In this document: one piece after another, positions 12,002 through 60,294 of the stretch | Position numbering within the stretch: position 1 is the first letter of the stretch | Layout of the letters: each line of letters opens with the position of its first letter | From: Minisyncoccota bacterium | Lineage (GTDB): Bacteria > Patescibacteriota > Minisyncoccia > UBA6257 > 2-01-FULL-56-20 | Assembly: GCA_041664245.1 (NCBI GenBank) | Contig: JBAYLC010000003.1 | Coordinates: 394-64,393 of the forward strand | DNA: 64,000 nt | Direction: 5' to 3' | Program-made: the position numbers and the translations under genes | Notes under the pieces: generated by a model | Database searches by the model: none | What the model saw: only the letters and a program-made list of their open reading frames with translations | Told to the model about the DNA's origin: nothing

Positions 12002-12487
12002 CTATCTTGCTATTTTTATTAACCTTTCATTCTCTTTTTTCCCGTGCTTGAATTCAATTTTCCGAATATTCTTCGGCAAAATATTCTTAATCCGTTCCGG
12101 CCACTCAATTAAAACTATATTCTTTGGATTTTCCAGAATTTCTTTGATTCCTAAAATTTTTAGTTCGTCCGCTTTTTTAATCCGATAACAATCAAAATGA
12201 TAGACATTAGTAAACGGCAAATCACGAAGCGCAAATCGCTTAAAAATCACAAACGTTGGACTCTGCGCTTTTCCCCGAATTCCCAGCCCGCGCAAAAATC
12301 CTTGTGTAAAAGTTGTCTTTCCGCTTCCCAAATCCCCCTTTAAAGCCAAAACCACCGCCCCTTTGCGGCTTGATACCTGACACTTGCTTGCCCCGAAGTA
12401 TCTTGAGGGGATACTTGATACTTTTTTCGCCACCTCACTGCCAACTTTCTTCGTCTCGTCTGAAGAATAAGTTCGATAAGTATTCAT
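12002..12487 (-). CDS. tsaE: tRNA threonylcarbamoyladenosine biosynthesis protein TsaE
   Basis: It has a P-loop, GDLGSGKTTFTQG, and an SPTF motif. The annotated start overlaps the upstream gene's end by 53 nt, so an internal start is possible. Confidence 0.8.
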   Translation of the reverse strand: MNTYRTYSSDETKKVGSEVAKKVSSIPSRYFGASKCQVSSRKGAVVLALKGDLGSGKTTFTQGFLRGLGIRGKAQSPTFVIFKRFALRDLPFTNVYHFDCYRIKKADELKILGIKEILENPKNIVLIEWPERIKNILPKNIRKIEFKHGKKENERLIKIAR

Positions 12488-22907: not shown

Positions 22908-22983
22908 AGTGGTGCGCACTCCTGGATTCGAACCAGGAACCGGTCGTGTATAAGACGACTGCTCTACCGTTGAGCTAAGTGCG
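22908..22983 (-). tRNA. tRNA-Ile (anticodon TAT, reads AUA); CCA encoded
   Basis: It reads GCGCACT-TA-GCTC-AACGGTA-GAGC-A-GTCGT-CTTATAC-ACGAC-CGGTT-CCTGG-TTCGAAT-CCAGG-AGTGCGC-A-CCA. Confidence 0.75.
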
Positions 22984-22987
22984 CTCT

Positions 22988-27190: not shown

Positions 27191-28372
27191 CTAATTCGTT
27201 TTAAAAAAACTCTTCTTCCCAATTCTCAAAATTTCTCCGCCCTTCAAATTAAGAAGCTCTTTTGGATCCTTTTTAGTTTCTCCATCAACACTAAATCCGC
27301 CTTGCTCAACAAGCCGCCACGCTTCACTTTTACTCTTCACCACTCCGCTTTGATAAACTAAATCCACTACACTCATCTTTTTGTTTTTTACTTTTAGAAT
27401 CGGTAAATCTCCGCTGAATTCTTTTTTAGAAAAAATCTTATCAAAATTTTCTCTCGCCGCCCGGGCCGCTTTCTCACCGTGATAGATTTTTACAATTTCA
27501 TATCCCAGCTTCGCCTTCAAATCTCGAGGCAGTAATTCCTTCTTTAAGTTTTTAATCTCGTCTGAATTTAAATCAGTACAAAATTCAAAATACCTCTCCA
27601 TCATCTTATCCGGGATTTTCATTACCTTGCCAAACATCTGATCTGAAAATTCCGAAAGTCCGATGTAATTACCATAGCTCTTGCTCATTTTTTTCTCCCC
27701 ATCAGTTCCTTCCAAGAGTGGCAAAGTCATCACGTCTTGTTCTTTCATTCCAAAATGTCTTTGTACCCTCCGTCCCATAAGTAGATTAAACTTCTGATCC
27801 GTCCCGCCGAGTTCAATGCTCGCTTTAATCTTTAGAGAATCATAACCTTGAAAAACCGAATACAAAACTTCGAGTAAAGTAATATCATGTCCCTCGTCTA
27901 GTCGTTTTTTAAAATCCGCCCGTTTCAAAACCTGTTGGATACTGCTCGCTCCCGCCAATTCTAAAATCGCCTTCACTCCTCCCTCTTTAAACCACCGGCT
28001 ATTATAAACCACCTCCGTTTTTTTTATATCAATTATTTTCGCGGCTTGAGCTAAATAACTTTTCATATTGCCCTTCACTTCTTTTTCAGTAAGCGGCTTC
28101 CTAGTTTCGTTTTTTCCCGACGGGTCGCCAATCGTTCCGGTAAAATCGCCGATTACTAAAACAACTTTGTGTCCTAATTTTTGAAAATCTCTAAGTTTTC
28201 TTAAAACAACAGCGTGACCAAGATGCAAATCAGGCGCCGTCGGATCAATCCCAAATTTAACCCTTAGCTTATCGCCACCAAGAAGCCTTTTCTTGAGGTT
28301 TTCTTTTTCAATCACTTCCTCAACATTTCGGCTTAAAAGTTTCTCTACTTCCTCAGTTTTATTAATTGCCAT
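27191..28372 (-). CDS. tyrS: tyrosine--tRNA ligase
   Basis: It has HIGH (DLHLGH), KMSKS and a C-terminal S4 domain. The start is likely MAINK at 28372, because a clpP terminator hairpin lies in 28403-28430, although the track ORF runs to 28441. Confidence 0.9.
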   Translation of the reverse strand: MAINKTEEVEKLLSRNVEEVIEKENLKKRLLGGDKLRVKFGIDPTAPDLHLGHAVVLRKLRDFQKLGHKVVLVIGDFTGTIGDPSGKNETRKPLTEKEVKGNMKSYLAQAAKIIDIKKTEVVYNSRWFKEGGVKAILELAGASSIQQVLKRADFKKRLDEGHDITLLEVLYSVFQGYDSLKIKASIELGGTDQKFNLLMGRRVQRHFGMKEQDVMTLPLLEGTDGEKKMSKSYGNYIGLSEFSDQMFGKVMKIPDKMMERYFEFCTDLNSDEIKNLKKELLPRDLKAKLGYEIVKIYHGEKAARAARENFDKIFSKKEFSGDLPILKVKNKKMSVVDLVYQSGVVKSKSEAWRLVEQGGFSVDGETKKDPKELLNLKGGEILRIGKKSFFKTN

Positions 28373-28402
28373 AGATATCTGGATTTTATCACAACTTCCC
28401 CT

Positions 28403-28430
28403 ATCAAAAAAGCCGCCTTTCGGCGGCACT
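28403..28430 (-). terminator. intrinsic terminator after clpP (gccgcc-gaaa-ggcggc + T-run on minus strand)
   Basis: The hairpin and T-run were read directly from the sequence. Confidence 0.65.
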
Positions 28431-28443
28431 TTCAAAAACAATA

Positions 28444-29068: not shown

Positions 29069-31078
29069 TTACCTAAAAAACTGCACTAATAGCAACGCCA
29101 CGATATTTATAACCTTGATCAACGGATTGATCGCCGGCCCCGCTGTGTCCTTATACGGATCGCCAACGGTATCACCAGTCACGGCCGCTTTATGCGCTTC
29201 TGATCCTTTTCCGCCAAAATGGCCTGACTCAATATATTTTTTAGCGTTATCCCAAGCTGCTCCACCCGATGTCATCGAAATCGCCACAAAAAGTCCAGAT
29301 ACAATCGTCCCGATTAAAAATCCGCCAAGCGCCGCTTTGCCTAAAACAAAACCGACCACTAGTACCGAGACAATCGGCAAAAGCGCCGGCACAATCATTT
29401 CTTGTAAAGCGGCCTTCGTCACGATATCCACCGCTTTGCCATATTCCGGTTTTCCCGATCCGTCCATAATTCCTTTTATTTCCCTAAACTGCCGGCGAAT
29501 TTCTTCAACCAGCGTCCCCGCTGTTTTGCCAACCGCCTTCATTGCGATTGATCCAAAAAGATAAGGAACCGAAGCCCCAAGGAAAAGCCCGATCACTACT
29601 ATCGGCGTCTGAAGATCAAAAGAAAAGCTCTCTGTCAGTTTCTTCACCTCTTCAACATAACCGGAAAAAAGAACCAAAGCCGCCAGTCCGGCCGAAGCAA
29701 TCGCGTAACCCTTAGTTATAGCTTTAGTAGTGTTCCCCACCGCATCCAAAGCATCTGTCGCTTCCCGAACATCATTCGACTGACCGGTCATCTCGGCAAT
29801 CCCACCTGCATTATCGGTAATCGGCCCAAAAGCATCTATCGCCACAATAATCCCCGCCACCGAAAGCATTGAAGTCGCCGCAATCGCGATTCCGTATAAA
29901 CCTGCCAACGAAAATGCTCCCAAAATTCCAAGCACGATAATCACAATCGGCAAAAAAGTCGCTTCGGTTCCTACTGAAAGTCCCATTATAATATTCGTCC
30001 CATGCCCTGACTTTGATGCCTCTGCGATACTCTTAACCGGCCGATATTTTTTCGCCGTATAATAATCAGTTACCAAAACCATTAGCACCGTCACCGCTAA
30101 TCCAACTAAACTAGCCATAAAAATATTCGCAAAGTTGTCCGGGAAAAAATATTTTGAAGCGAAAAAGAAAAACACGGCTGACACAACAAGCGCCACCGTT
30201 AATCCTTTATAAAGCGCCCCCATTATTGAATTATTTTTACCCAGCTTCACAAAAAAAGTTCCTATTATTGAAGCTACAATTGCCAACCCACCCAAAACAA
30301 GCGGGAACTGAACTTGAAACGGAGACAAGTGTCCGAGTCCAACACCAATTAAAATCGCCGCCGTAAGCGTCACTGCATAGGTTTCAAAAAGATCCGCCGC
30401 CATTCCCGCGCAATCACCGACATTGTCGCCAACGTTATCCGCGATCACCCCGGGGTTCCTCGGATCATCCTCCGGAATTCCCGCTTCGATCTTCCCAACC
30501 AAATCTGTTCCCACATCCGCCGCTTTGGTAAAAATTCCTCCCCCCAATCTAGCGAAAACTGAGATAAGCGAACTTCCAAAAGCGAGCCCGATAAGCACAC
30601 CGGTACCACCACTCAAAATATCAGCCTGAAACATAAAGAAAAAAAGTGAGACCGCTAAAAGGCCCAACCCTACCACTAAGAAACCAGTCACCGATCCGCC
30701 CAAAAAGGCCACTCTAAATGCCTTCGCTAAACCATGCTTGGCTGCTTCCGTTGTCCGCGAATTAGTATCCACCGCTGTCATCATCCCCAAATAACCCGCC
30801 AAAGCCGAAGTGAAAGCGCCAACCAAAAATCCAAAAGCAATTATTTGCCCCGACGCATTAAATTTCATCATCGCCATAATCAAAAACGCGATTACAATCG
30901 CCACATATACAACCGTTTTATTCTGCCGCCGTAAATAACTCTTTGATCCCTCTTTAATTGCGTCCCGAATCGCCAGCATCTTTACATCTCCAGACGGATA
31001 TCGCTTGACTGACTTGATCAAGAACACTCCAAAAACGATCGACGCTAATGCCAAACCGACTGATAAAAATACATTCAT
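29069..31078 (-). CDS. hppA: membrane-bound proton/sodium-translocating pyrophosphatase
   Basis: The 669 aa polytopic product has the [17 protein letters not shown] and DNVGDNVGD motifs. Confidence 0.95.
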
Positions 31079-33397: not shown

Positions 33398-35203
33398 ATG
33401 ATAAAAAAAACTTTAATTCGTCCAAGAGACGAATCTCAAAAAAATCGTTCTGTTAGATCAGAAAAACCAGCTCGTCGGCCTAGATTTTCGCCGTCCTCAA
33501 GAAAATCAGAATCAGAAATAAAAAATCCGATCCAGAAAAACGCAAACGCACTTCGTTTTATTCCTTTGGGTGGCCTCGAAGAAATCGGCCGCAATATGAT
33601 GTTTTTTGAATATAAAAACGAGATCGTCATCGTTGATGCCGGCCTTCAATTTCCCGAAGAAGAAACACCGGGCGTTGATTTTATTATTCCTAACATTACC
33701 TATCTCCAAGAAAAAAAAGCTAATATCCAAGCTCTAATCCTTACTCACGCCCACTACGATCATATTGGCGCCATTCCTTACGTAATGGAAAAAATTGGCA
33801 ACCCGCCGATCTACGCCACTTCTCTAACAAAAGCCATCGTCGAGAAACGGCAAGAGGATTTCCCCAACACCCCCAAATTAAGAATCATCACTGTCAAAAA
33901 TGGCGACGTCATGAAACTATCAAATCATTTCGAAGCCGAATTTTTTGCTATCCCTCACACTATTCCCGATTCGACGGGCATCCTTCTTAAAACCCCGGTC
34001 GGCAACGTTGCCAACCTCGGCGATTTCCGAGTTGAATATGATATGAACGGAAATCCGGAAGGTTTAGATGAATTAGAAAGAATTGGGAAAAAGGGTGTTC
34101 AATTATTCGTGATCGACAGCACCAGCGCCGACAAACCCGGCGTCTCCGAAAGCGAGCGCTTGGTTGAAAAAAATCTTGAGGACCTTTTCAAAAAAGCCCA
34201 AGGCCGCATTGTAATAGCCATGTTCGCATCCGTTCTAACGCGCATCGCCGAAGTCATCAAAATTGCCGAGAGATTAGACCGCAAGGTCGCTCTCTCCGGC
34301 TACTCAATGAAAGCCAACGTTCAAATTGCCCGCCAGCTCGGTTTCATTAAAGTCAGCAACGACACTGTTATCCCTTTAGAAGAAATCCATCGCTATAAAG
34401 ACAATAAACTTATTATTCTCTCAACTGGCGCCCAGGGCGAATCAAACGCTAGTTTGATGAAAATTATTACCGGCGAACACCGCTTCGTAAAAATCAAACC
34501 CGGCGACACCGTTATTCTCTCCGCCTCGATTATTCCCGGCAACGAACGTAGTGTTCAAAGTGTCAAAGACAATCTCGCCCGCCAAGGCGCTATCATCTTT
34601 CACTCCGATATTATCGACATTCACGCGAGCGGCCACGCCCCAAAAGAAGACCTCAAGCTGGTAATGAAACTTATCAACCCGAAATTCCTCGCTCCGGTTC
34701 ATGGCTACTATTACAAACGCTCAGTTAATGCCCAATCCGGCGTTGAAGTTGGTATTCCCAAAGAAAATATTTTTCTTTTAGACAATGGCCAAGTCGCCGA
34801 AATAACTCCTTCTAGTTTTAAAATCACCAAAGAGACAGTTCCTTCTTACTACGTCATGGTTGACGGTCTCGGCGTCGGTGACGTTGAAGAAGTTGTTCTT
34901 CGCGATCGCCGCACTCTCGCCCAAGAAGGAATGGTGGTTATCATCATCACCATCGACCGGAAAAATAATCAACTTCTCAAAAGCCCCGACATCATTTCTC
35001 GCGGCTTCATCTACTTAAAAGAGAACCAGGGTATCTTAGAAGAAATCCGCAAAAAAATCCGCAGCGTTCTCTCCCGCCTTCCCAACTACCAGCCGCTCGA
35101 AGCCGACTACCTAAAAACTTTAATCCGCGACCAAATCGGCCAGCTAATGTATAATAAAACCAAACGCCGGCCAATGATCCTACCGGTCGTGATTGAAATC
35201 TAA
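33398..35203 (+). CDS. rnj: ribonuclease J (MBL/beta-CASP)
   Basis: It has THAHYDHIG and the beta-CASP and C-terminal domains. The N-terminus is basic and extended. Confidence 0.9.
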   Translation: MIKKTLIRPRDESQKNRSVRSEKPARRPRFSPSSRKSESEIKNPIQKNANALRFIPLGGLEEIGRNMMFFEYKNEIVIVDAGLQFPEEETPGVDFIIPNITYLQEKKANIQALILTHAHYDHIGAIPYVMEKIGNPPIYATSLTKAIVEKRQEDFPNTPKLRIITVKNGDVMKLSNHFEAEFFAIPHTIPDSTGILLKTPVGNVANLGDFRVEYDMNGNPEGLDELERIGKKGVQLFVIDSTSADKPGVSESERLVEKNLEDLFKKAQGRIVIAMFASVLTRIAEVIKIAERLDRKVALSGYSMKANVQIARQLGFIKVSNDTVIPLEEIHRYKDNKLIILSTGAQGESNASLMKIITGEHRFVKIKPGDTVILSASIIPGNERSVQSVKDNLARQGAIIFHSDIIDIHASGHAPKEDLKLVMKLINPKFLAPVHGYYYKRSVNAQSGVEVGIPKENIFLLDNGQVAEITPSSFKITKETVPSYYVMVDGLGVGDVEEVVLRDRRTLAQEGMVVIIITIDRKNNQLLKSPDIISRGFIYLKENQGILEEIRKKIRSVLSRLPNYQPLEADYLKTLIRDQIGQLMYNKTKRRPMILPVVIEI

Positions 35204-36191
35204 AATGAAACCCGTTCTTATTTCAGGGATCCAGCCCTCTGGACGCCTTCATCTCGGCAATTACCTCGGCGCCCTAAAAAATTTCGTTGACCTCCAAAAT
35301 TCCGGCAAGTATGACTGCTACTTTTTTATTGCCGATCTTCATTCTTTAACCGAAAGCTACACGCCAGAAGAAAAACGCAAACAGATTTTAGAACTTATCT
35401 CCGACTACCTCGCCGTCGGTCTTAATCCTAAAAAATCAGTTATTTTCCTCCAATCTCAAGTTCTCGCTAATTCCGAGCTAGCTTTTATTCTAAACACCAT
35501 CACGCCAATAGGAGAACTGCGTCGGATGACTCAATACAAAGAAAAATCTCAAAACGAAAAAGAAACTTCCAACGTCGGCCTCTTTACCTATCCAACTCTT
35601 ATGGCCGCCGACATTTTAATTTATGATGCTAAATTTGTCCCGGTCGGCGACGACCAGCTCCAACATCTTGAACTCGCCCGCACTCTCGCCAGAAAATTCA
35701 ACTCTCGTTTCGGGAAAATTTTTGTCGAGCCCCAACCGCTTCTAACTAAATCTCCTCGCGTTATGAGCTTAGGTGATCCCACCAAAAAAATGTCTAAGTC
35801 CGCCCCTCAAACCTGCCTCTTCCTTGAAGATTCACCCGAAGAAATAAAATCAAAAATAAAACACGCCGTGACCGACTCTGGTAATGAAATTAAGTTTGAT
35901 CAAAATAAAAAACCCGGCCTAAGCAATCTTTTAAACATCTATTCGGCTTTAAGCGAAAAACCAATCGCCAAAATCGAAAAAGAATTTGCCAATCAAAACT
36001 ACGGTTCTTTCAAATCCGCTCTCGCCAATTTAATAATTGAAAATCTGGCTGATTATAGAAAACTTAAGAAGTCCCTAAAATCCAAAACCCATAACCTAAA
36101 AACTATTTTAAACGCCGGTTCTAAAAAAGCCTCTCTTAGGGCCAATAAAAAAATCGCTGAAGTAAAAAATAAAATTGGTTTGAATCTTTAA
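35193..36191 (+). CDS. trpS: tryptophan--tRNA ligase
   Basis: It has the HIGH-like motif PSGRLHLGN and KMSKS. It overlaps rnj by 11 nt. Confidence 0.9.
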   Translation: MKSKMKPVLISGIQPSGRLHLGNYLGALKNFVDLQNSGKYDCYFFIADLHSLTESYTPEEKRKQILELISDYLAVGLNPKKSVIFLQSQVLANSELAFILNTITPIGELRRMTQYKEKSQNEKETSNVGLFTYPTLMAADILIYDAKFVPVGDDQLQHLELARTLARKFNSRFGKIFVEPQPLLTKSPRVMSLGDPTKKMSKSAPQTCLFLEDSPEEIKSKIKHAVTDSGNEIKFDQNKKPGLSNLLNIYSALSEKPIAKIEKEFANQNYGSFKSALANLIIENLADYRKLKKSLKSKTHNLKTILNAGSKKASLRANKKIAEVKNKIGLNL

Positions 36192-37061: not shown

Positions 37062-37862
37062 ATGAATTCTAAAGAGATAACCGCTCTGCGAAATGTATTA
37101 TCTGCTGCCATTCAAAAAGCTGGAAAAGTAGTTCTGACATCTAGAAAAAGGATCAGCATTGCAAGTACCTCCGCTCACGACTTAGTAACTACTGCCGACC
37201 ACAAGTCGGACGGATTATTAATCGCTACCCTCAAAAATCACTTTCCGAAAATTGCCGTATATTCCGAAGAGTCCGGCGGTGAAAAAAAGTTTCCAAAAGA
37301 ACTATTGGCTATTTTTGATGGAATTGACGGAACTATCAATTACTCCTCGGGGTCTCCTATCTGGGGAATCTCCGGAGCTATTCATGAAAACGGCATACCC
37401 ATCGCAGCCGCAATTTGCCAGCCCGCCCTAAACAAATTCTTCTCTATGACCGCTTATAAAACGGCGACCGTTCATCGCCAGGTCAGCGAAAGGAAATTGT
37501 CCGTTAGTAAGAAACGCGACCTAGAAACAGCTCGTGTTTGCACGGAATGGAAAAAAGGCAATTCGGAAATCGTCTATGATATCCTCCGAATCCTCTTTGA
37601 AAACACAATGTGCCCGCAAATATTTGTTTGCTGCACATTCTCGATAATGTTGGTCGCCGAAGGAATTTTAGATGGCTGCGTAGCATCCGGTCCTACGCCC
37701 GAAGACGTCGCCGCAGCAATTCCTATTCTTGAAGCCGCCGGCGGTCGCGTCACTGATCTCGATGGCAATCCCTACGACATATTTTCGGGAAAGGTAATGG
37801 TCGCTTCGAACGGCCACATCCACAAAGCACTTTTGAAAACTCTCGAATCGATCAGGAAATAA
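37062..37862 (+). CDS. inositol monophosphatase / CysQ (3'(2'),5'-bisphosphate nucleotidase) family phosphatase
   Basis: It has the metal-binding motifs YSEESGG, FDGIDGT and EDVAAA..EAAGG. It has its own TTGACA-N16-TATAAT promoter at ~36997-37025. Confidence 0.75.
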   Translation: MNSKEITALRNVLSAAIQKAGKVVLTSRKRISIASTSAHDLVTTADHKSDGLLIATLKNHFPKIAVYSEESGGEKKFPKELLAIFDGIDGTINYSSGSPIWGISGAIHENGIPIAAAICQPALNKFFSMTAYKTATVHRQVSERKLSVSKKRDLETARVCTEWKKGNSEIVYDILRILFENTMCPQIFVCCTFSIMLVAEGILDGCVASGPTPEDVAAAIPILEAAGGRVTDLDGNPYDIFSGKVMVASNGHIHKALLKTLESIRK

Positions 37863-37904: not shown

Positions 37905-38687
37905 TTGCTTAGAGTCAAAAATTGCGCTTCGGTAGGTATTATCTATCGAGCGAACCAACCGGGACAGGTCTTTCTCGAAACTAAAACTCCCGGTTATCCC
38001 GTGGAAGTTTTCGTGGGAAAGGGATTATTGCTGGGCGGCAACTGGGTTGGAAGCGTTCCGGACAAAAATCCCCTTGAAACTTTTCAGAGGGAAATCAGAG
38101 AAGAACTTTCTTTCGGAAATCCAGCTTTTGACCCCCAAGAAGTTGAATTACTCTTTGGAGAAAAAGCAATTGGGCATCCGTCCGAGGTAAGAAACATTTC
38201 TCCCGACCCCCAAGATGAAATCGAGCTGGAAAAAATAGTATCGACCATCTGTAATGGGGCAAAACCCTTTGGCGTATTTAGTCAAAAAGTTTCAAGGTCT
38301 CTTTTCGACAGCGGAAATCTCAAAAACAGAGCGGACGACCATACCGGCCTAATCTCTGTTTTCGAAGTTCCCCTCGAAGATGATACTTGGCTGCTACTGA
38401 TGAACCTTCAGGAAAAATTCGGAAATCTGTCTAACGAAAGCCAGAGTACCGCAACCTCTGTTTGGGAAATCCTGAAAAGAGGTATTCAGCTTGCGTGGGG
38501 AGAAGATCGCATCCTTATGCAGCACTTTCTGCGACATGGAATAGATGAAGCAGCAGGAATGCGACTAATGCCCTTTATCAATCTAAAGTATTGGGGACCC
38601 GTCGCCGACAATTACGACACCTACCTCCAGTCCATGGAAATCGAGAAGATTCCAAATGGAGTCGAACGACCCAAAATCACATCTTAG
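37905..38687 (+). CDS. Nudix-fold protein with degenerate Nudix box (paralogue B), TTG start
   Basis: The LGGNWVGS..FQREIREELSF region aligns with paralogue A. A Shine-Dalgarno sequence (aaggagg) precedes the TTG start. Confidence 0.6.
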   Translation: MLRVKNCASVGIIYRANQPGQVFLETKTPGYPVEVFVGKGLLLGGNWVGSVPDKNPLETFQREIREELSFGNPAFDPQEVELLFGEKAIGHPSEVRNISPDPQDEIELEKIVSTICNGAKPFGVFSQKVSRSLFDSGNLKNRADDHTGLISVFEVPLEDDTWLLLMNLQEKFGNLSNESQSTATSVWEILKRGIQLAWGEDRILMQHFLRHGIDEAAGMRLMPFINLKYWGPVADNYDTYLQSMEIEKIPNGVERPKITS

Positions 38688-38766: not shown

Positions 38767-41700
38767 CTATATCTTCCTCACCCCCACCCAAATTTCTTCA
38801 CCGTCTAATTTAGTAATAATCTCCACCAAAAACTTTTCCGATTTTTTATAACTAATTGATTCCGCGCCCACCTCCTTTTTAAATGAATCTTCGTTTTTAT
38901 CAATTATTTTTCGCAAGCTCTCGGGTAACTCCATCATTCCCATGATTCGATCCTCTGCGCTTAGTCCCGCTTTCGCTCTCAAATCCTGAACCAATCTCAC
39001 AAATTCCCTAACCAATCCCTCTTCTTTTAATTCTTTAGTAATATTCAAATCCAACTCCACCTCTCCGGAAATTTTGTCGTTAAATTGTACTTCCTTCACA
39101 TTTACCTCATCGGCTAAAATCCGAATTAACTCCTTATTCTTAATTCCTAAATCTTTATTCTTAATTCTCAAAGCCGCCAAAGGTTGGCGGACTTTGATTC
39201 CCGCCTCCGCCCGCTTAGCTAGCCCCAACGCTGCTAATCTTCTCACTTCTGCCATCTCTTCTAAAATTTTTGATTTTTTTTCTCTTGTTTTTAATTCCGG
39301 CCACCTCTCTAGATGTACTGATATTTCATTCTTGATACCTGATTCCCTATTCTTAATTCCTTCAAAAATAACCTCCGCAAAAAATGGCGTAAACGGTGCA
39401 ATTAATTTCGTTATTTCTTGAATCACGTAACCCAGTGTTTGCGATACCGCTGTATAATCTTTCTCGCTTATTGGTTTCTGTAGCCTTCGCCGCGACCTCC
39501 GAATATACCACCGTGATAAATCATTAATCAATTCCTCGATAACTATTGTCGCCTCTCTTACTTCGTAATTCTCGAGGTGTTTAGTTGTCTTATCAATCGT
39601 TTCATTAAGCCGCTCCGAAATCCATTGATCTAAAATATTTCGTGATTCACGATTTGCTATTTGTGATTTGCCATTAGCATACGTGTAATAAAACAAGAAC
39701 GAATTCCATAAAATCAAATGAAATTTCCGGGAAGTTTTTACAATTTCCGCCTCGTCGAAATTCCGAGGCTCTCCCGCCGGCGCCGCATTATAAAAATACC
39801 ACCTAACTGCATCTATCCCGTATTTCTCAATCATCGTCGCTGGCATAACAATATTTCCTTTTGATTTTGACATTTTCTGGCCAAATTTATCGTTTATAAG
39901 CCCAAGGCAAATAACATTTTTATAAGGTGCTTCAAAACCCAAAAGAGTCGCCACCGCTAAAAGGGTGTAAAACCACCCGCGCGTCTGATCTACTCCCTCA
40001 GAAATATAATCTGCTGGATACTGTAAATCTTTTAATCCTTTATTCTGTTCAAACGGCCAATGCGCCTGCGCTAGTGGCATCGCCCCCGAATCAAACCAAA
40101 CATCGGCAATTTCTTTCACCCTTTTCATTTTTCCGCTGCATTTTTTGCAACCAAAAACCATTTCGTCCGCAAACGGCCGATGTAGATTGATCTCCCCTGT
40201 TCTGTCTCGTGGGTTAAGCTTCAAATCAGTTTTTAAAAAATCTGCTACATTTATAAAAATCCCCTCCTTTTTTCCTATTTCTTGAATCGCTTCTTTTTCT
40301 GTCCATCCCCTCATTATTTGAGCAAACATCCAAATTGGATATTCGTGGCTTACAATCAAAATTCTCTTTCCCTTGTATTTCTTTTCAGTATCTTTAATAA
40401 AATCCCAAAGTCGAGTTCGCAAATCTAAAAGCGACTCTCCTCTCTCCGGTTTCTTCGAAAATTTATCCTCATAAGTTGGAAATTCATCGTGATATTCTTT
40501 TAAAGGTCGGCCCGAAAATTCAGCCACTTGTATCTCCCGAATTCGCTTATCGAAATTTACCTTCTTAATTCCTAAGATTTTTGAGGTAATCTGAGCCGTC
40601 TCTTTTGTCCGCAAAAGATCAGAGGCAAAAATCAATTGAATTTTTTCTTTTTTCAAAACCTGAGCGGTTTTCTCCACCTGTTTTCGGCCTCGATCGGTTA
40701 AGTGAAAGTTCTGATTGCCCGAATCAGCAATCCCCAACATCTGTGTTTCCGATTCTCCATGTCTCATAAATAAATACTCATTATTAGCCTCCCCCATCCT
40801 ATCACTCAATTCATCAAGACTGCCGATTACCTCTTCCTTGCCGCACTTACCACAAATCCAAATCGGCAAAGGCGTTCCCCAATATCTTTCCCGGGAAAAA
40901 TTCCAATCCTTCACCTCTTTTAACCATTCACCAAACCGGCCTTCTTTAATGTGTTTTGGCAGCCAATTTATTTTTTTATTCGCCGCCATCAACTCATTTT
41001 TTACCGCCGTGGTCTTCACAAACCAAGCATCTCGCGCATAATAAAGAAGTGGCGTTTTGCATCGCCAGCAGAATGGATATTCATGAGAATATTTTTCTAT
41101 CTTTAGTAAATTCTCGTTCTTTTCTAAAATACTGAAAATTTTCTTATCCGTTTCGGGATCCTTAACATACATTCCGCTCAAGCCCGACACCTCCTTTATG
41201 AATTTCCCCTGTTCATCAACCGTGTGAAATTGCGACAAACCGGCTTTAGCGCCTAACTTATAATCGTCTTCGCCATACATCACCGCCGTGTGTACCACCC
41301 CCGTTCCATCCGTCGTCGTCACAAAATCCGCCGCGTAAATCTTATAAGAATTCTTATTCTTTAATTTAGAAACATTAAAAAGCGGCTCATAATTCAACCC
41401 AATTAGATCCTTACCCTTGGTTGTTTTTTCAATTTTTCCCCGGACGCCCACCGCCTCAATCCGCTCTTTCGCCACCACAAAAATTTCTCCGCTCTCTGAT
41501 TCAAGCAAAACATAATCAATCTTTTCTCCCACCGCCAAAGCCACATTTCCCGGCAGTGTCCACGGCGTCGTTGTCCACGCCAACACATAAGTTTTGTCGT
41601 TCGTGTACCAGTCTCCAATTTTCTGTTTCGATTTTAATTTGAATCTAACGTAAACCGATTTATCTTCCACCGTCTCGTATCCCTGCGCCACCTCATGAGA

Positions 41701-42267
41701 AGAAAGGCCCGTCCCGCACCGTGTGCACCACAAAATAACCTTGTATCCTTTATACAAAAGCTTCCTCGCCCAAAACTGCTTAATAATCCACCACAATGTT
41801 TCCATATAATCCTTTTCATAAGTGATATATGGATTTTTTAAATCCAGCCAAAACCCCATCCGCTCTGTTAATTGCTCACCCTCTTCTTTGTACTGCCAAA
41901 CCGACTCCTTACACTTCTGATTGAATTTCTCAATTCCATATTCCTCAATCTCTTTTTTTGACTTCAACCCAAGCTTTTTTTCCACTTCAATTTCCACCGG
42001 CAAACCGTGCGTGTCCCAGCCGCTCCGCCGCGGCACATAAAAACCGCGCATAGTTTTATAGCGTAGAATAATATCCTTAAAAGACCGTGCTAAAACATGG
42101 TGGATACCCGGCCGCCCATTCGCCGTTGGCGGTCCCTCATAAAAGGTGAATTTTTTCTTTCCCTTATTTTTTTCGAGTGATTTCTCGAAAATTTTATTTT
42201 TCTTCCAAAACTCCAAAACCTTCTCCTCGGCTTTAGCCAAACTAAAATCTTTAAAATCCGCAAACAT
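38767..42267 (-). CDS. ileS: isoleucine--tRNA ligase with inserted histidine-phosphatase (PGAM-like) domain
   Basis: It has HIGH (PGIHH), the CP1 editing region, a CxxC zinc knuckle and KMSKS. A ~200 aa RHGES histidine-phosphatase domain lies between VIGSLDEL and LHRPF. The start may be 42297. Confidence 0.9.
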   Translation of the reverse strand: MFADFKDFSLAKAEEKVLEFWKKNKIFEKSLEKNKGKKKFTFYEGPPTANGRPGIHHVLARSFKDIILRYKTMRGFYVPRRSGWDTHGLPVEIEVEKKLGLKSKKEIEEYGIEKFNQKCKESVWQYKEEGEQLTERMGFWLDLKNPYITYEKDYMETLWWIIKQFWARKLLYKGYKVILWCTRCGTGLSSHEVAQGYETVEDKSVYVRFKLKSKQKIGDWYTNDKTYVLAWTTTPWTLPGNVALAVGEKIDYVLLESESGEIFVVAKERIEAVGVRGKIEKTTKGKDLIGLNYEPLFNVSKLKNKNSYKIYAADFVTTTDGTGVVHTAVMYGEDDYKLGAKAGLSQFHTVDEQGKFIKEVSGLSGMYVKDPETDKKIFSILEKNENLLKIEKYSHEYPFCWRCKTPLLYYARDAWFVKTTAVKNELMAANKKINWLPKHIKEGRFGEWLKEVKDWNFSRERYWGTPLPIWICGKCGKEEVIGSLDELSDRMGEANNEYLFMRHGESETQMLGIADSGNQNFHLTDRGRKQVEKTAQVLKKEKIQLIFASDLLRTKETAQITSKILGIKKVNFDKRIREIQVAEFSGRPLKEYHDEFPTYEDKFSKKPERGESLLDLRTRLWDFIKDTEKKYKGKRILIVSHEYPIWMFAQIMRGWTEKEAIQEIGKKEGIFINVADFLKTDLKLNPRDRTGEINLHRPFADEMVFGCKKCSGKMKRVKEIADVWFDSGAMPLAQAHWPFEQNKGLKDLQYPADYISEGVDQTRGWFYTLLAVATLLGFEAPYKNVICLGLINDKFGQKMSKSKGNIVMPATMIEKYGIDAVRWYFYNAAPAGEPRNFDEAEIVKTSRKFHLILWNSFLFYYTYANGKSQIANRESRNILDQWISERLNETIDKTTKHLENYEVREATIVIEELINDLSRWYIRRSRRRLQKPISEKDYTAVSQTLGYVIQEITKLIAPFTPFFAEVIFEGIKNRESGIKNEISVHLERWPELKTREKKSKILEEMAEVRRLAALGLAKRAEAGIKVRQPLAALRIKNKDLGIKNKELIRILADEVNVKEVQFNDKISGEVELDLNITKELKEEGLVREFVRLVQDLRAKAGLSAEDRIMGMMELPESLRKIIDKNEDSFKKEVGAESISYKKSEKFLVEIITKLDGEEIWVGVRKI

Positions 42268-42651
42268 AGTATCTATATTCAAGCACAAAAAACACAATCA
42301 GTTCAAATTAGACCGAGCTTCCCTTTCGGTAAAAAATCAATTAAACTAGAGCAAAACAGAAAGATAGCCCCTCCTCTTCTCCACCGAACCGCTCTTCTCT
42401 TCTCAAGGAGCAAACCAGGAGAAACAGACTTCCCGTCACTATCTTTCTGTTCTTTTTTTCGCCTTCCCAGCCGAACTAACTACTTCGGCAGAATAGGCAA
42501 GCAGAGCGCCTCCCCTTCTAATTACCACCAAAATAAACTATTCTTAAAATCAAGAGGCAAGATAGATAAGAACTCAAAAGGGACAGACAGCCAAGCTATA
42601 TCCAATAGGGCAAAACGTTCAACCACCTATCTATCTTGCCCTTTTTATTCT

Positions 42652-44346
42652 CTAGATTTTATCCAAAACTTCTATCCCCAAGAGTCCTAGGCCGCTTTCA
42701 AGAACTGTTCCCGCCAAATCAATAAGCCCCAACCGGGCATTTTTTTTATCTCGATCGTTCTCTCGCCCCACCGGCACGGTCTCGTAAAATCTATTAACCA
42801 AATTAGCCAGCTCAAAAAGATATTCTGTTAGCTCGCTGGTTAAAAACGTCCGCCTCGCTTTTGTCACCGCTTCTGGAAACTGCGCAATTTTAAGAATTAG
42901 ATCATCTTCAACTTCATTTTTTAAGAATTCAAATTTTGGTTTCGCTGCCCTCCCTGATTTGTTTTTTATTCCTTGAATCCTCGCATAGGTATATTGCAAA
43001 TACGGTGCGCTATTCCCTGAAAAATCCAACATTCTCTCCCAATCAAAAACAATATCCGAATGCCTATTTTCCTTCAGATCGCCATATTTCAAAGCGCCGA
43101 TTCCCACCGCTCGAGCCACTCGCTCTTTTTCTTTTTCACTCAACTGTGGATTTTTTTTAGCCACCACCTCTTTTGCCAAGCCAATTATTTTTTCTATTAA
43201 ATCACTCAAAATAATCACTCTTCCTTCTCGAGTCGCAAACCTTTTCCCTTTTTCACCTAAAATAGTTCCAAATTTTATGTGTTCGGTTTTTATGTCGCTC
43301 CACCCTAAAATATTTTTTATCGCAAAAAGTTGTTCAAAGTGAAGCGACTGCTCATTTCCCACCACATACAAAATTTCCTCCGGCCTGTATTTTTCTCGAC
43401 GATACTCTAAATTGGCGATATCACGAGTCAGGTACAAGCTAGCGCCATCCGATTTCTGAATCAACCCGGGCGGCAAACCCCGATCATCAAGCGGCACCAC
43501 TAATGCCCCTTCGCTTCTTTTCGCCACTCCCCGCTTAATCAAATCATCAACTAGTAGCTTCAATTTCTTTTCGTAAAAAGCTTCTCCAATCCAGATATCA
43601 AAATCCACTCCCAAAATTTTATAAATCTTTTGAAATTCTTTGAGTGATTCTTTTTTAAACCATTCCCATAATTTTCTATTTTCTCGGTCTCCTTGCTCCA
43701 GCTTTTTAAATTCTTCCTGGCCCCGCCCTTCGAGCTCCGGCTTTTCCTTCATCTCGTCATGAAATTTCACGTAGAGTTTTTGGAGTTCTACGATCGGTTC
43801 CTGCTCCACAACTTTTTTGTCCCCCCACAACTTATACGCTGCGATTAACTTTCCAAACTGCGTCCCCCAATCACCCAGATAATTCCACCTTAAAACTTTA
43901 TAACCCGAAAACTCAAAAATATTAGCAATCGCGTCGCCGATAATTGTCGAGCGAATATGCCCCACATGCATCTGCTTGGCGATATTCGGATCAGAATACT
44001 CCACTATTATTTTTTTGCCTCGGCCGATTTTTGTCCGGCCAAAATTTTTTCGCTCCGCGTAAATTTTTTCTCCCTCCGATTTAACAAAATCCGGCGCGAG
44101 TTTTAAATTAATAAAGCCCGGCTTAATCACCGAAACATCAGCAATCATTTCTTTTGGCGCCTCCTTCCTAATCGCCGTCGCCCAATCCTCCGCCAGAACC
44201 ATCGGATTTTTACCGAGTTCTTTTGCCAACTTCAGCGCCGCGTTGGTCGAAAAATGGCCAAATCCTTTTTGCTCCGGCACCGTCACCTCAAACCCATCTT
44301 CTCGGCCAATCGCCCGTTTTATTAATATTTCTACTTTTTCTTTCAT
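42652..44346 (-). CDS. argS: arginine--tRNA ligase
   Basis: It has the HIGH motif HVGH and the DALR anticodon-binding domain. Confidence 0.9.
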   Translation of the reverse strand: MKEKVEILIKRAIGREDGFEVTVPEQKGFGHFSTNAALKLAKELGKNPMVLAEDWATAIRKEAPKEMIADVSVIKPGFINLKLAPDFVKSEGEKIYAERKNFGRTKIGRGKKIIVEYSDPNIAKQMHVGHIRSTIIGDAIANIFEFSGYKVLRWNYLGDWGTQFGKLIAAYKLWGDKKVVEQEPIVELQKLYVKFHDEMKEKPELEGRGQEEFKKLEQGDRENRKLWEWFKKESLKEFQKIYKILGVDFDIWIGEAFYEKKLKLLVDDLIKRGVAKRSEGALVVPLDDRGLPPGLIQKSDGASLYLTRDIANLEYRREKYRPEEILYVVGNEQSLHFEQLFAIKNILGWSDIKTEHIKFGTILGEKGKRFATREGRVIILSDLIEKIIGLAKEVVAKKNPQLSEKEKERVARAVGIGALKYGDLKENRHSDIVFDWERMLDFSGNSAPYLQYTYARIQGIKNKSGRAAKPKFEFLKNEVEDDLILKIAQFPEAVTKARRTFLTSELTEYLFELANLVNRFYETVPVGRENDRDKKNARLGLIDLAGTVLESGLGLLGIEVLDKI

Positions 44347-58941: not shown

Positions 58942-60294
58942 CTACAACTCCACCTCCTCTTTGTATTCCGGAATCTCTGTATGAATCACCAACTCATCAT
59001 TAATTTTCTTAGCTAAAGCTGCCGTCGCTCCCTCATCTCCTTGGACCACAAACACTTTCTTTAATGTTATTTTTCTAGTCGCCAGCCAATCTAAAAGTCG
59101 CGGCTGGTCGGCGTGGGCTGAATAACCACTAATCATTCTCACCTTCGCGTGAACCGGCACTTCCTCGCCAAAAATTCTTACCGCCTTTGCTCCCTCAAGA
59201 AGTTGTCGTCCCATTGAACCTTCCGCTTGATACCCCACCAAAAGCAACATACTCTTGGGGTCCGGTAAATATCTAAACTCATGATGCAACACCCTCCCGC
59301 CGTTCGACATCCCCGAACCGGCGATAATAACTTTTGGCGCCGGCACGTCATTAATTCTTTTTGAATCTTCTGTTGTCGGCGTGAAAGTCAGTCCTTTAAA
59401 ATTCAAAACATCATCTCCCCCCTTGATTAAATCCGATGTTCCTCTATTAAAATATTTATGATATTTTCGATAAACTTCGGTCAGCTTAATCGCCAAGGGA
59501 CTATCAATATATATTGGTATTTTTGGAATCCGTCCATTTTCAATCAAATCATTTAATTCATAAAGTAATTGTTGTGTTCGCTCCATCGCAAAAGCGGGTA
59601 TCACCAAAACCCCTCTTGATCTCACCGTATCTTCAATCGCGTCTTCAAGCATTTCCCGCCGCGCCGAAACATCTTCATGAATTCTATCGCCGTAAGCCGA
59701 TTCGATCAAACAATAATCCGCCTCCGGCAGTTCTTCGGTCGGATTAATAATCGGCGCCGGCGAGTTTCCTAAGTCGCCGGAAAAAACCACCGACTGGCCA
59801 TCGCTCTCAACTCGAATAAAAGCTGATCCTAAAATATGCCCAGCATCAAAAAATTCAATTTTAAAAGTATCCCAATCAATTTTTTGGTGATACTCCACGC
59901 CCTCCCAATGTCTCATCACCGCTTCGACATCTTCTTGGGTGTACAAAACCGGCTTCCTCTCTCGATTCGCCTCTTCGCTCAAAAGATGTTCCGAATCAAG
60001 CAATAAGAACTCCGAAAAATCCCGGGTGGCTGGTGTCGAAAAAATCTTTCCTCGAAATCCGTCTTTGTAAAGTTTTGGTAGAAGTCCAGTATGGTCAATG
60101 TGTGCGTGCGTCACAAAAACCGCCTGAATTTCTTTTGGATCATATGGAAATGGATCGAAATTTTGCCGCTCGGCAAAATTGCTTCCTTGATGTAATCCGC
60201 AATCAATCAGAATCTTCGTCTTCCCGTTTTTCGTCTCCAGTAAATAGCTTGACCCCGTCACCGTTCTCGCTCCGCCGTAAAAAGTTAGTTTCAT
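58942..60294 (-). CDS. MBL-fold metallo-hydrolase, beta-CASP RNA-metabolising family
   Basis: It has HAHIDHTG and the beta-CASP motifs. Confidence 0.8.
   Translation of the reverse strand: MKLTFYGGARTVTGSSYLLETKNGKTKILIDCGLHQGSNFAERQNFDPFPYDPKEIQAVFVTHAHIDHTGLLPKLYKDGFRGKIFSTPATRDFSEFLLLDSEHLLSEEANRERKPVLYTQEDVEAVMRHWEGVEYHQKIDWDTFKIEFFDAGHILGSAFIRVESDGQSVVFSGDLGNSPAPIINPTEELPEADYCLIESAYGDRIHEDVSARREMLEDAIEDTVRSRGVLVIPAFAMERTQQLLYELNDLIENGRIPKIPIYIDSPLAIKLTEVYRKYHKYFNRGTSDLIKGGDDVLNFKGLTFTPTTEDSKRINDVPAPKVIIAGSGMSNGGRVLHHEFRYLPDPKSMLLLVGYQAEGSMGRQLLEGAKAVRIFGEEVPVHAKVRMISGYSAHADQPRLLDWLATRKITLKKVFVVQGDEGATAALAKKINDELVIHTEIPEYKEEVEL

Follow-up and report, generated by a model that had tools for sequence, protein, structure and literature searches.

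An isoleucyl-tRNA synthetase of Patescibacteria with a nested histidine-phosphatase domain

The stretch analysed here (the window) comprises 64,000 nucleotides of a Minisyncoccota bacterium genome (assembly GCA_041664245.1, contig JBAYLC010000003.1, positions 394 to 64,393 of the forward strand) and carries the gene for an isoleucyl-tRNA synthetase (IleRS), ileS. The product of this gene is, with near certainty, one polypeptide comprising two complete enzymes, in which a histidine phosphatase occupies the hairpin of the third connective-peptide subdomain (CP3) of the synthetase. It is a real, widespread and undescribed variant of aminoacyl-tRNA synthetase (aaRS) architecture, carried by public proteins whose annotation says no more than IleRS or 'class I tRNA ligase'. 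We favour the reading, at a probability of about 0.5, that the phosphatase would be an accessory enzyme functionally coupled to IleRS. Coordinates refer to the window, residue numbers refer to the 1166-residue protein that starts with the ATG at 42267, and ileS, its parts and its upstream neighbour lie on the minus strand.

Domain architecture of the synthetase and its insert

The longest open reading frame (ORF) over the insertion (38767..42297) begins with a TTG codon and encodes 1176 residues. The true ileS start is most likely the ATG at 42267, because an identical 1166-residue protein exists in NCBI, JGI and ENA. This protein (P0121) shows 100% identity to the window protein across 1166 residues, is present on contigs of up to 182,822 bp, and bears the NCBI label 'MAG: class I tRNA ligase family protein [Candidatus Paceibacterota bacterium]'. 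The coding sequence so defined (38767..42267, 1166 residues plus stop) scored 881.4 bits with the NCBIfam ileS equivalog TIGR00392 (cutoff 621.4) in two stretches flanking the insert, and Pfam tRNA-synt_1 was split in two around a His_Phos_1 domain, followed by Anticodon_1 (residues 880-1031) and DUF5915 (residues 1070-1165). In the domain nomenclature of PMC7191050, the N-terminal part of the synthetase (residues 1-488; 40804..42267; tRNA-synt_1 at residues 17-491) contains the first Rossmann half with the HIGH-type motif PGIHH (42097-42111), the CP core, the CP1 editing domain, CP2 and the first half of CP3. The C-terminal part (residues 694-1166; 38770..40188) contains the rest of CP3, the second Rossmann half (DVWFDSG), the KMSKS motif (39862-39876), the anticodon-binding domain and the type-2 C-terminal domain (DUF5915). 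The class I signature residues H57, K798, M799 and K801, the CP1 editing motifs W231-N241 (WTTTPWTLPGN) and G321/G323/V325/H326 (GTGxVH), and the cysteines C472, C475, C707 and C710 were all invariant in 77 homologues, and the ileS product is accordingly predicted to be a complete, editing-competent type-2 IleRS.

The structural comparison led to the same family. A Foldseek search with the full-length model returned type-2 IleRSs as the best matches, namely Priestia megaterium IleRS2 (8C9D/8C8V), yeast IleRS and Thermus thermophilus IleRS (1ILE, 38% identity). This eukaryote/archaeon-like, mupirocin-resistant type resembles the window protein in overall fold (Foldseek E ~1e-88 to 1e-74 and 32-38% identity for the P. 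megaterium and T. thermophilus structures), in the HIGH-type and KMSKS motifs, in the CP1 editing motifs and in the C-terminal DUF5915. T. thermophilus IleRS also has a zinc-binding CP3 with two CxxC pairs; the subdomain joins CP2 to the second Rossmann half, and its topology varies between IleRSs (PMC7191050).

Alignment with the insert-less ileS products of relatives (loci L013, L014, L016, L019, L020, L022 and L023) delimited an inserted segment of ~205 residues (residues 489-693; 40189..40803) between VIGSLDEL (consensus VIGSxxEL) and LHRPF (DLH(R/K)P), where the insert-less proteins have ~8-25 residues; the L013 product and the core of the window protein share 55% identity. The site was assigned to CP3 because it falls between the two CxxC pairs of the zinc knuckle of this subdomain, C472-G-K-C475 (40843..40854) just upstream and C707-K-K-C710 (40138..40149) just downstream. 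Thus, whereas solved IleRSs have a short beta/alpha element in CP3, that of the window protein is broken by a whole 205-residue enzyme domain. The domain proper spans residues 495-666 (40270..40785), as delimited by Pfam, by alignment to free-standing homologues, and by models and fold matches. Its PF00300 (His_Phos_1) match covers residues 499-658 (E=3.4e-34, 118.6 bits against a gathering threshold of 21.7). The junction alignment leaves a return linker of 27 residues to CP3 (residues 667-693; 40189..40269), which is modelled with a beta-strand at 677-680.

Translation and conservation indicate a complete predicted catalytic set: R502-H503-G504 (40756..40764), of which H503 would be the phospho-accepting nucleophile; R553, the second phosphate-binding arginine, in SDLLRTKET (40609..40611); E578, the predicted proton donor, in REI (40534..40536); H641, the second catalytic histidine, in IVSHEYP (40345..40347); and, in addition, E611 and R619. 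The ileS frame is intact, with zero stops or frameshifts in the insert. The AlphaFold model of the full-length protein had a mean pLDDT (predicted local distance difference test) of 89.1 and a pTM (predicted template modelling score) of 0.83, with values of 91-97 within the insert and no disordered linker; modelled alone, the insert reached a pLDDT of 88. In a Foldseek search the isolated domain matched GpgP Rv2419c, PhoE, PspA, CobC and cofactor-dependent phosphoglycerate mutases (dPGMs) at TM 0.71-0.79, without discriminating phosphatases from mutases. Free-standing homologues align end to end with residues ~495-680 (alignment of 20; 34-46% identity), and a whole gene product is therefore embedded in IleRS. 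On these grounds the insert is a complete, compact (~175 residues) branch-1 histidine phosphatase of the PhoE/PspA/GpgP type whose active site is predicted to be intact.

These results agree with the original prediction, which had been made from the DNA letters. The IleRS hallmarks that it had listed (PGIHH, CP1 editing domain, CxxC, KMSKS and anticodon-binding region) were all recovered by translation, Pfam and TIGR00392. It had also placed an insert of ~200 residues at 40189-40785, which the segment delimited here covers, and had read it as a full branch-1 histidine phosphatase that is in frame and neither an intron nor an intein. The profile match, the full set of catalytic residues, the independent and confident fold, the lack of stops and the presence of His_Phos_1 as the only Pfam domain in the insert all bear this out, and the motifs it had quoted (RHG, LLR ending in residue 553, ILIVSHEYPI around H641, CGKC and CKKC) lie where it had put them. 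Two of the checks that it had proposed, a Pfam profile search and a structure prediction, gave the expected His_Phos_1 match and a separate domain. As to function, it had suggested that the domain might add a phospho-substrate or phospho-His activity to IleRS, or that it might be a regulatory module.

Distribution, genomic context and alternative forms

All 120 of the best full-length homologues (55-84% identity, 1146-1271 residues) combine PF00133, PF00300, PF08264 and PF19302. They were drawn from NCBI, JGI, ENA and Logan assemblies under names that include Paceibacterota, Liptonbacteria and Parcubacteria group bacterium GW2011_GWA1_59_11. Fusion-bearing fragments are also labelled Nealsonbacteria, Magasanikbacteria and Colwellbacteria, and nine GTDB representative genomes carry the IleRS-phosphatase fusion. 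A search with the insert alone against 1.84 billion 50%-identity cluster representatives returned 1051 matches at E≤1e-10; the best 150 of these include 88 fused to an IleRS core and 56 free-standing proteins of <260 residues. The origin in the candidate phyla radiation (CPR) suggested by the original prediction is borne out by the Paceibacterota and Parcubacteria names of the homologue sources, and its proposal to trace the insert in CPR relatives was answered by the 120 homologues and the nine GTDB genomes. It had named no earlier case of a phosphatase-domain insertion in a class I aaRS, and no publication on a histidine-phosphatase domain in IleRS or in any other aaRS was found among 7.7 million PMC papers and in bioRxiv. 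The fusion is, however, common to hundreds of public sequences and not confined to this genome.

The same data bear on the possibility of an artefact. An assembly chimera, or a unique oddity, is ruled out by the identical protein on contigs of up to 183 kb and by the shared architecture of the 120 homologues and nine GTDB genomes; the original prediction had itself named a chimera as an outcome that would overturn it. An intein, intron or mobile insertion is ruled out by the content of the insert, in which His_Phos_1 is the only Pfam domain and neither a Hint nor an endonuclease domain occurs. Altogether, the probability of a chimera, a pseudogene or an intein-like mobile insertion is negligible: the slightly lower G+C of the insert (0.34-0.35 vs ~0.41) favours it and nothing else does, whereas the frame is intact, the catalytic residues are conserved, and the same architecture is found in independent assemblies.

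Conservation extends over both enzymes. R502, H503, R553, H641, S549, E611, R619 and G527 are invariant across the 120 fused homologues, and E578 is kept in 99%. In domains inserted at the same position as in the window protein (site A, see below), R502 is present in 229/230, H503 in 230/230, R553 in 238/238 (and in 75/75 free-standing proteins), E578 in 229/238 and H641 in 235/236. P686, R687 and G691 of the return linker are 93-99% conserved. Mean identity of the fused homologues to the query was 0.51 for the phosphatase, in comparison with 0.55 for the anticodon-binding domain, 0.48 for the C-terminal domain and 0.66 for the Rossmann/CP region. Since the phosphatase is about as conserved as other IleRS domains and the IleRS motifs are invariant, both enzymes appear to be under purifying selection.

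Extra synthetase domains are already a known theme, represented by editing domains with free-standing homologues and by the curated NCBIfam model NF040702 (ileS_w_GNAT, 'isoleucine--tRNA ligase, N-acetyltransferase domain-containing'). The latter is a precedent for an IleRS with an additional unrelated enzyme domain; however, that domain is a GNAT, and the window protein is not a member (317 bits against a cutoff of 1999). The INS domain of ProRS with free-standing YbaK/ProXp, and the editing domain of AlaRS with AlaX, are established cis/trans pairs, in which one domain family occurs both free-standing and built into the synthetase it serves. The domains of these pairs act as aminoacyl-tRNA deacylases on a known substrate, whereas the present one is a predicted phosphomonoesterase whose free-standing form is an operon neighbour. 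The bifunctional RNase H/acid phosphatase of the Rv2228c type (NF005567), which ranks second among the NCBIfam matches to the insert (84 bits; cutoff 326), likewise joins a CobC/PhoE-like histidine phosphatase to a nucleic-acid enzyme, but the partner enzyme is another one and the fusion is end to end rather than nested.

In relatives with an insert-less ileS, a free-standing orthologue of the phosphatase (186-218 residues) was found between argS and ileS in 9/9 loci examined, in the gene order argS - phosphatase - ileS - ... - recO. In eight of the nine (L013, L016-18, L019, L020, the P0078 contig, L022, L023/24 and L011) it lies immediately upstream of ileS, with a gap that ranges from a 4-nt overlap to 12 nt. 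In the ninth (L014/15) two small genes separate it from ileS (L014 6572-7947; L015 605-1971); they encode a 113-residue product without a family and a 338-residue protein of the pyridoxal-phosphate-dependent PALP family with a faint likeness to threonine synthase (33 bits). In L011 (5935-9292; OY969803.1, a 516-kb 'complete' chromosome) the phosphatase gene and the ileS downstream of it are both broken into many overlapping frames, most likely by long-read indel error rather than by pseudogenisation or recoding. Fused loci retain argS upstream of ileS (window, L001, L007 and L008). In the window, argS (42652..44346; ArgRS, 564 residues; Pfam tRNA-synt_1d, DALR_1 and Arg_tRNA_synt_N) lies directly upstream, and SmpB and IF3 genes lie near ileS, as in loci of the free-standing type.

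The spacer between argS and ileS in the window, at which the insert-less relatives carry the free-standing gene, measures 384 nt to the ATG (42268..42651). A maximum-sensitivity hidden Markov model (HMM) search of the three frames of the gene strand detected no remnant of a phosphatase gene in the argS-ileS spacers of the window, L001, L007 and L008. The spacers of these fused loci are unusually long, at ~300-690 nt (window 42268-42651, L001 4326-4626, L007 1807-2492 and L008 1698-2160), and those of L007 and L008 have conserved stretches in common, which may represent a leader or a small element. An Rfam scan returned only tRNAs and transfer-messenger RNA (tmRNA), and neither a T-box nor a leader was found upstream of ileS.

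The phosphatase is nested at more than one position of IleRS, as judged by mapping insertion sites onto the window protein by BLAST and HMM. Site A, in CP3 at residues 489/694, is used in the query and in the large majority of homologues. Site A', directly after the second CxxC, holds the first copy in P0329 and the second copy in P0306, and probably also that of its relatives P0324, P0345 (labelled Peribacteria) and P0317. Site B follows DVWFDSG at residues ~735-752 and is occupied in P0384, where it is the only site, in the P0386 cluster, and by the second copy of P0329. Site C, a loop at residues ~864-878 before the anticodon-binding domain, holds the second copies of P0314 and of the P0386 cluster. 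Some lineages carry 2-4 domain copies per IleRS, in the pairs A+A', A'+B, A+C and B+C and, in P0250, as four copies. Six independent ENA assemblies, with contigs reaching 1.06 Mb, contain the B+C form. Where one protein has several copies, these are old (distances of at least ~1.0), and nearly every copy, whether at B, C, A' or in tandem, keeps the set R-H-(G/A)…R…E…E…R…H. Two copies depart from it, namely the first of P0329, with Q at the E611/R619 positions, and the first of P0317, which is N-terminally truncated and has no RHG. A simple N-terminal fusion to IleRS was not found among the 88 fused representatives. The same phosphatase subfamily is also joined to the C-terminus of ArgRS (P0261; 689 residues, 70-kb contig) and, in four Patescibacteria clusters (P0362 and P0396-P0398; 379-442 residues), to bona fide TsaC (TIGR00057, 147 bits against a cutoff of 123). 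TsaC is the threonylcarbamoyl-AMP synthase of t6A biosynthesis.

A neighbour-joining tree of IleRS cores (881 columns, 100 bootstraps, archaeal outgroup) interleaved lineages of the free-standing type with fused ones, as in the groups (P0379_A,(L023,L016,L014)) with 100% and (P0377_A,(L020,L019)) with 97% support, and united the A', B and C forms in a single clade (99%). Comparison of the phosphatase domains grouped free-standing with free-standing proteins, and all site-A fusions share the return-linker motif P..(R/N)..G..(D/N)LHRP. By these sequence comparisons, at least two changes of state would be needed under any rooting. These signals conflict as to insertion or fission; cassette transfer by recombination between conserved flanks could perhaps reconcile the trees. 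One divergent clade of insert-less IleRSs (L014 7925-10843, L016 5994-8948 and L023 1549-4407) has PWLDAG in place of VWFDSG and 'AVEGWExF' in the CP3 loop, which MAFFT aligns to the phosphatase helix 'GW(S/T)EKE' of the fused proteins; it could be what is left of a lost insert, or the match could be due to chance.

Possible roles of the nested phosphatase

The functional coupling of phosphatase and IleRS is favoured on three grounds: the very consistent adjacency in the operon, the nesting at several sites, and the multiplication of copies with intact active sites. The presence of a separate gene beside ileS in sister lineages implies that the two enzymes probably work together. The phosphatase would first have worked in trans and later have been tethered to IleRS. 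Phosphomonoester hydrolysis would proceed through a phospho-His503 intermediate, the substrate would be something that IleRS binds or needs, and the aminoacylation chemistry of IleRS itself would be unchanged. The leading candidate for this substrate, proposed tentatively and at rather long odds, is a blocking 2'/3'-phosphate (or pyrophosphate) on the tRNA acceptor end, which would bar class I (2'-OH) aminoacylation. Somewhat more doubtful is the fuller version, in which the domain would be a built-in tRNA acceptor-end 'healing' enzyme that clears A76 before charging, a new form of cis-acting tRNA repair or quality control. It would be analogous to editing domains, but would act before aminoacylation. 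Such blocks on A76 could stem from nuclease or toxin damage, from products of 2H-phosphoesterases, or from CCA-pyrophosphorylating toxins. Branch-1 members are able to remove terminal phosphates from nucleic acid and ATP (PMC2737285), and a 2H/cyclic phosphodiesterase, another RNA-end-healing activity, is fused to TsaC in the same bacteria, both in keeping with a tRNA-end substrate.

Several points weigh against coupling and against a tRNA-end substrate. The nearest relatives in sequence and fold are small-molecule phosphatases and mutases. The domain is not consistently basic, with a median pI of 9.0 at site A vs 5.7-6.2 at sites B and C, while the free-standing proteins are basic. Patescibacteria freely fuse unrelated neighbouring genes, as exemplified by TsaC, which is mostly joined to Ogt-type domains, so that fusion by itself says little about a common function. 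Inherited synteny could account for the argS-X-ileS adjacency. Finally, if the target were damaged tRNA ends in general, the choice of IleRS over other synthetases would be unexplained. As a separate observation, the partners of Patescibacterial TsaC (P0399-P0512) are mostly of the O6-methylguanine-methyltransferase type (PF01035, Ogt-type) and also include TruB, 2H/cyclic phosphodiesterase (PF07823/PF13563), methylpurine glycosylase, GNAT and NUDIX domains; gene fusion seems to be rampant in these genomes.

The strongest competitor, which we consider a serious possibility of lower probability, is that the domain would be a housekeeping small-molecule phosphatase or mutase unrelated to IleRS, adjacent to ileS by synteny, then nested in tolerant surface loops by genome compaction and assured of co-expression with an essential gene. 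Phosphoserine or sugar-phosphate phosphatases would qualify, as would the phosphoglycerate mutase (PGM) that Jaffe et al. 2020 reported as absent from several shallow Parcubacteria clades and 'possibly too divergent' (PMC7304191). The closest PDB sequences to the insert are PspA, a phosphoserine phosphatase (E=1.5e-12), and PhoE, the fold matches to GpgP, PhoE, PspA, CobC and dPGMs are all much alike, and NF038349, a model of the short archaeal dPGM type, scores highest in NCBIfam (88.5 bits for the insert and 99 for the free-standing P0048). The joining of CPR TsaC to many unrelated domains and the variability of CP3 among IleRSs, which makes it likely to tolerate insertions (PMC7191050), also fit this explanation. 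However, no NCBIfam equivalog cutoff was reached by the insert or by free-standing members. NF038349 requires 225 bits, and for the insert the scores and cutoffs were 28.5 vs 81.7 for the dPGM model TIGR01258, 52 vs 261 for GpmB (NF002901), 78.7 vs 350 for PspA, 75.6 vs 162.9 for CobC and 35.4 vs 74.5 for SixA. Bona fide dPGM chains are far weaker sequence matches (1FZT, E=5e-5), and glycolytic genes were neighbours in 0/9 contexts examined. Neutral nesting also explains poorly the four insertion points, the 2-4 catalytically intact copies and the lack of end-to-end IleRS fusions.

The comparison with individual enzymes of this kind gives a similarly mixed picture. PspA (4IJ5), PhoE/YhfR (1EBB, 1H2E), GpgP Rv2419c (4PZ9) and CobC (6E4B) resemble the insert in size (~190-210 residues), fold (TM 0.71-0.78) and the RHG…R…E…H set, and its free-standing relatives, too, have a single domain and the same length. 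They are only 19-26% identical to the insert, and the phosphatase studied here is encoded in or just upstream of ileS rather than in a metabolic operon. With respect to the residues specific to dPGMs (K100, R116/R117 and H-G-N of E. coli GpmA, compared by numbering rather than by a computed alignment), the family consensus seems to have no conserved Lys or Arg-Arg at such spacing and has H-E for H-G-N. That IleRS harbours the phosphoglycerate mutase 'missing' from Parcubacteria is quite unlikely.

A protein-directed or structural role also appears improbable. The domain would in this case dephosphorylate IleRS or a partner that carries phosphoserine, phosphothreonine, phosphohistidine or phosphotyrosine after attack by a kinase or toxin, or it would serve in dimerisation or scaffolding, with two copies in neighbouring loops forming an intramolecular pair. 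Branch-1 includes the protein phosphatases SixA, PGAM5 and Sts, and many members of the family are dimers. The occurrence of copies in pairs or as four fits pairwise association, the full-length model is rigid (pTM 0.83), and there is a match to SixA, albeit a weak one (35 bits). On the other hand, the cap region is of normal size, as in small-molecule enzymes, and not of the minimal SixA type, no kinase is conserved in the neighbourhood at the loci examined, and a purely structural role would not need the catalytic set that is kept in nearly every copy.

The clearing of pyrophosphate (PPi), AMP or Ap4A-type by-products, which would pull forward the reactions of the adenylate-forming IleRS, ArgRS and TsaC, is the least probable of the roles considered and is regarded as very unlikely. 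All three fusion partners release PPi from ATP, but no member of the histidine-phosphatase family is known to be a dedicated pyrophosphatase. Members of the family can cut phosphoanhydrides, as in yeast Det1, a histidine phosphatase that cleaves the gamma-phosphate of ATP (PMC2737285). The window itself encodes a membrane H+-translocating pyrophosphatase (29072-31078, minus strand; PF03030, 857 bits), which weakens this explanation further, since PPi would already be handled and probably used for energy conservation.

Surroundings of the gene and significance

Apart from ileS and argS, the window is rich in translation and RNA genes, which include those for TyrRS, a second class Ib (Trp/Tyr-type) synthetase, RNase J, a second beta-CASP RNase, TsaE (12005-12487), SmpB, tmRNA and IF3; further coordinates recorded for this group are 27194-28441 (minus strand), 35193-36188 (plus strand), 33398-35200 (plus strand) and 58945-60294 (minus strand). 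At 22910-22984 (minus strand) lies a gene for a tRNA-Ile whose anticodon is TAT (UAU) and whose CCA end is encoded. Bacteria usually decode AUA with a CAU tRNA modified by TilS, and a UAU tRNA-Ile is uncommon; its presence may be linked to the type-2 (eukaryote/archaeon-like) IleRS of the organism. Immediately downstream of ileS, the segment 37050-38700 has a G+C of 0.41-0.49, against ~0.33-0.40 on its upstream side, and contains two plus-strand ORFs (37062-37862 and 37905-38687), an inositol-monophosphatase-family gene and a 260-residue ORF without a Pfam match; it may be foreign or differently constrained.

The aaRSs are among the best-studied enzymes, and the add-on domains known from them serve in tRNA binding, editing or signalling. 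A phosphatase with a predicted intact catalytic site that is conserved in the body of IleRS in much of the Patescibacteria would add a functionally new class to these accessories. For protein evolution, the family offers a clean natural case of a neighbouring gene becoming, or ceasing to be, a nested domain, with both states and several sites available for comparison. If the phosphatase is a metabolic enzyme, essential metabolic genes would be hidden in 'IleRS' annotations, which could explain gaps in CPR pathways such as that of PGM. Should its target be tRNA or IleRS, an unrecognised step in the tRNA-Ile supply of these ultra-small symbiotic bacteria would come to light.

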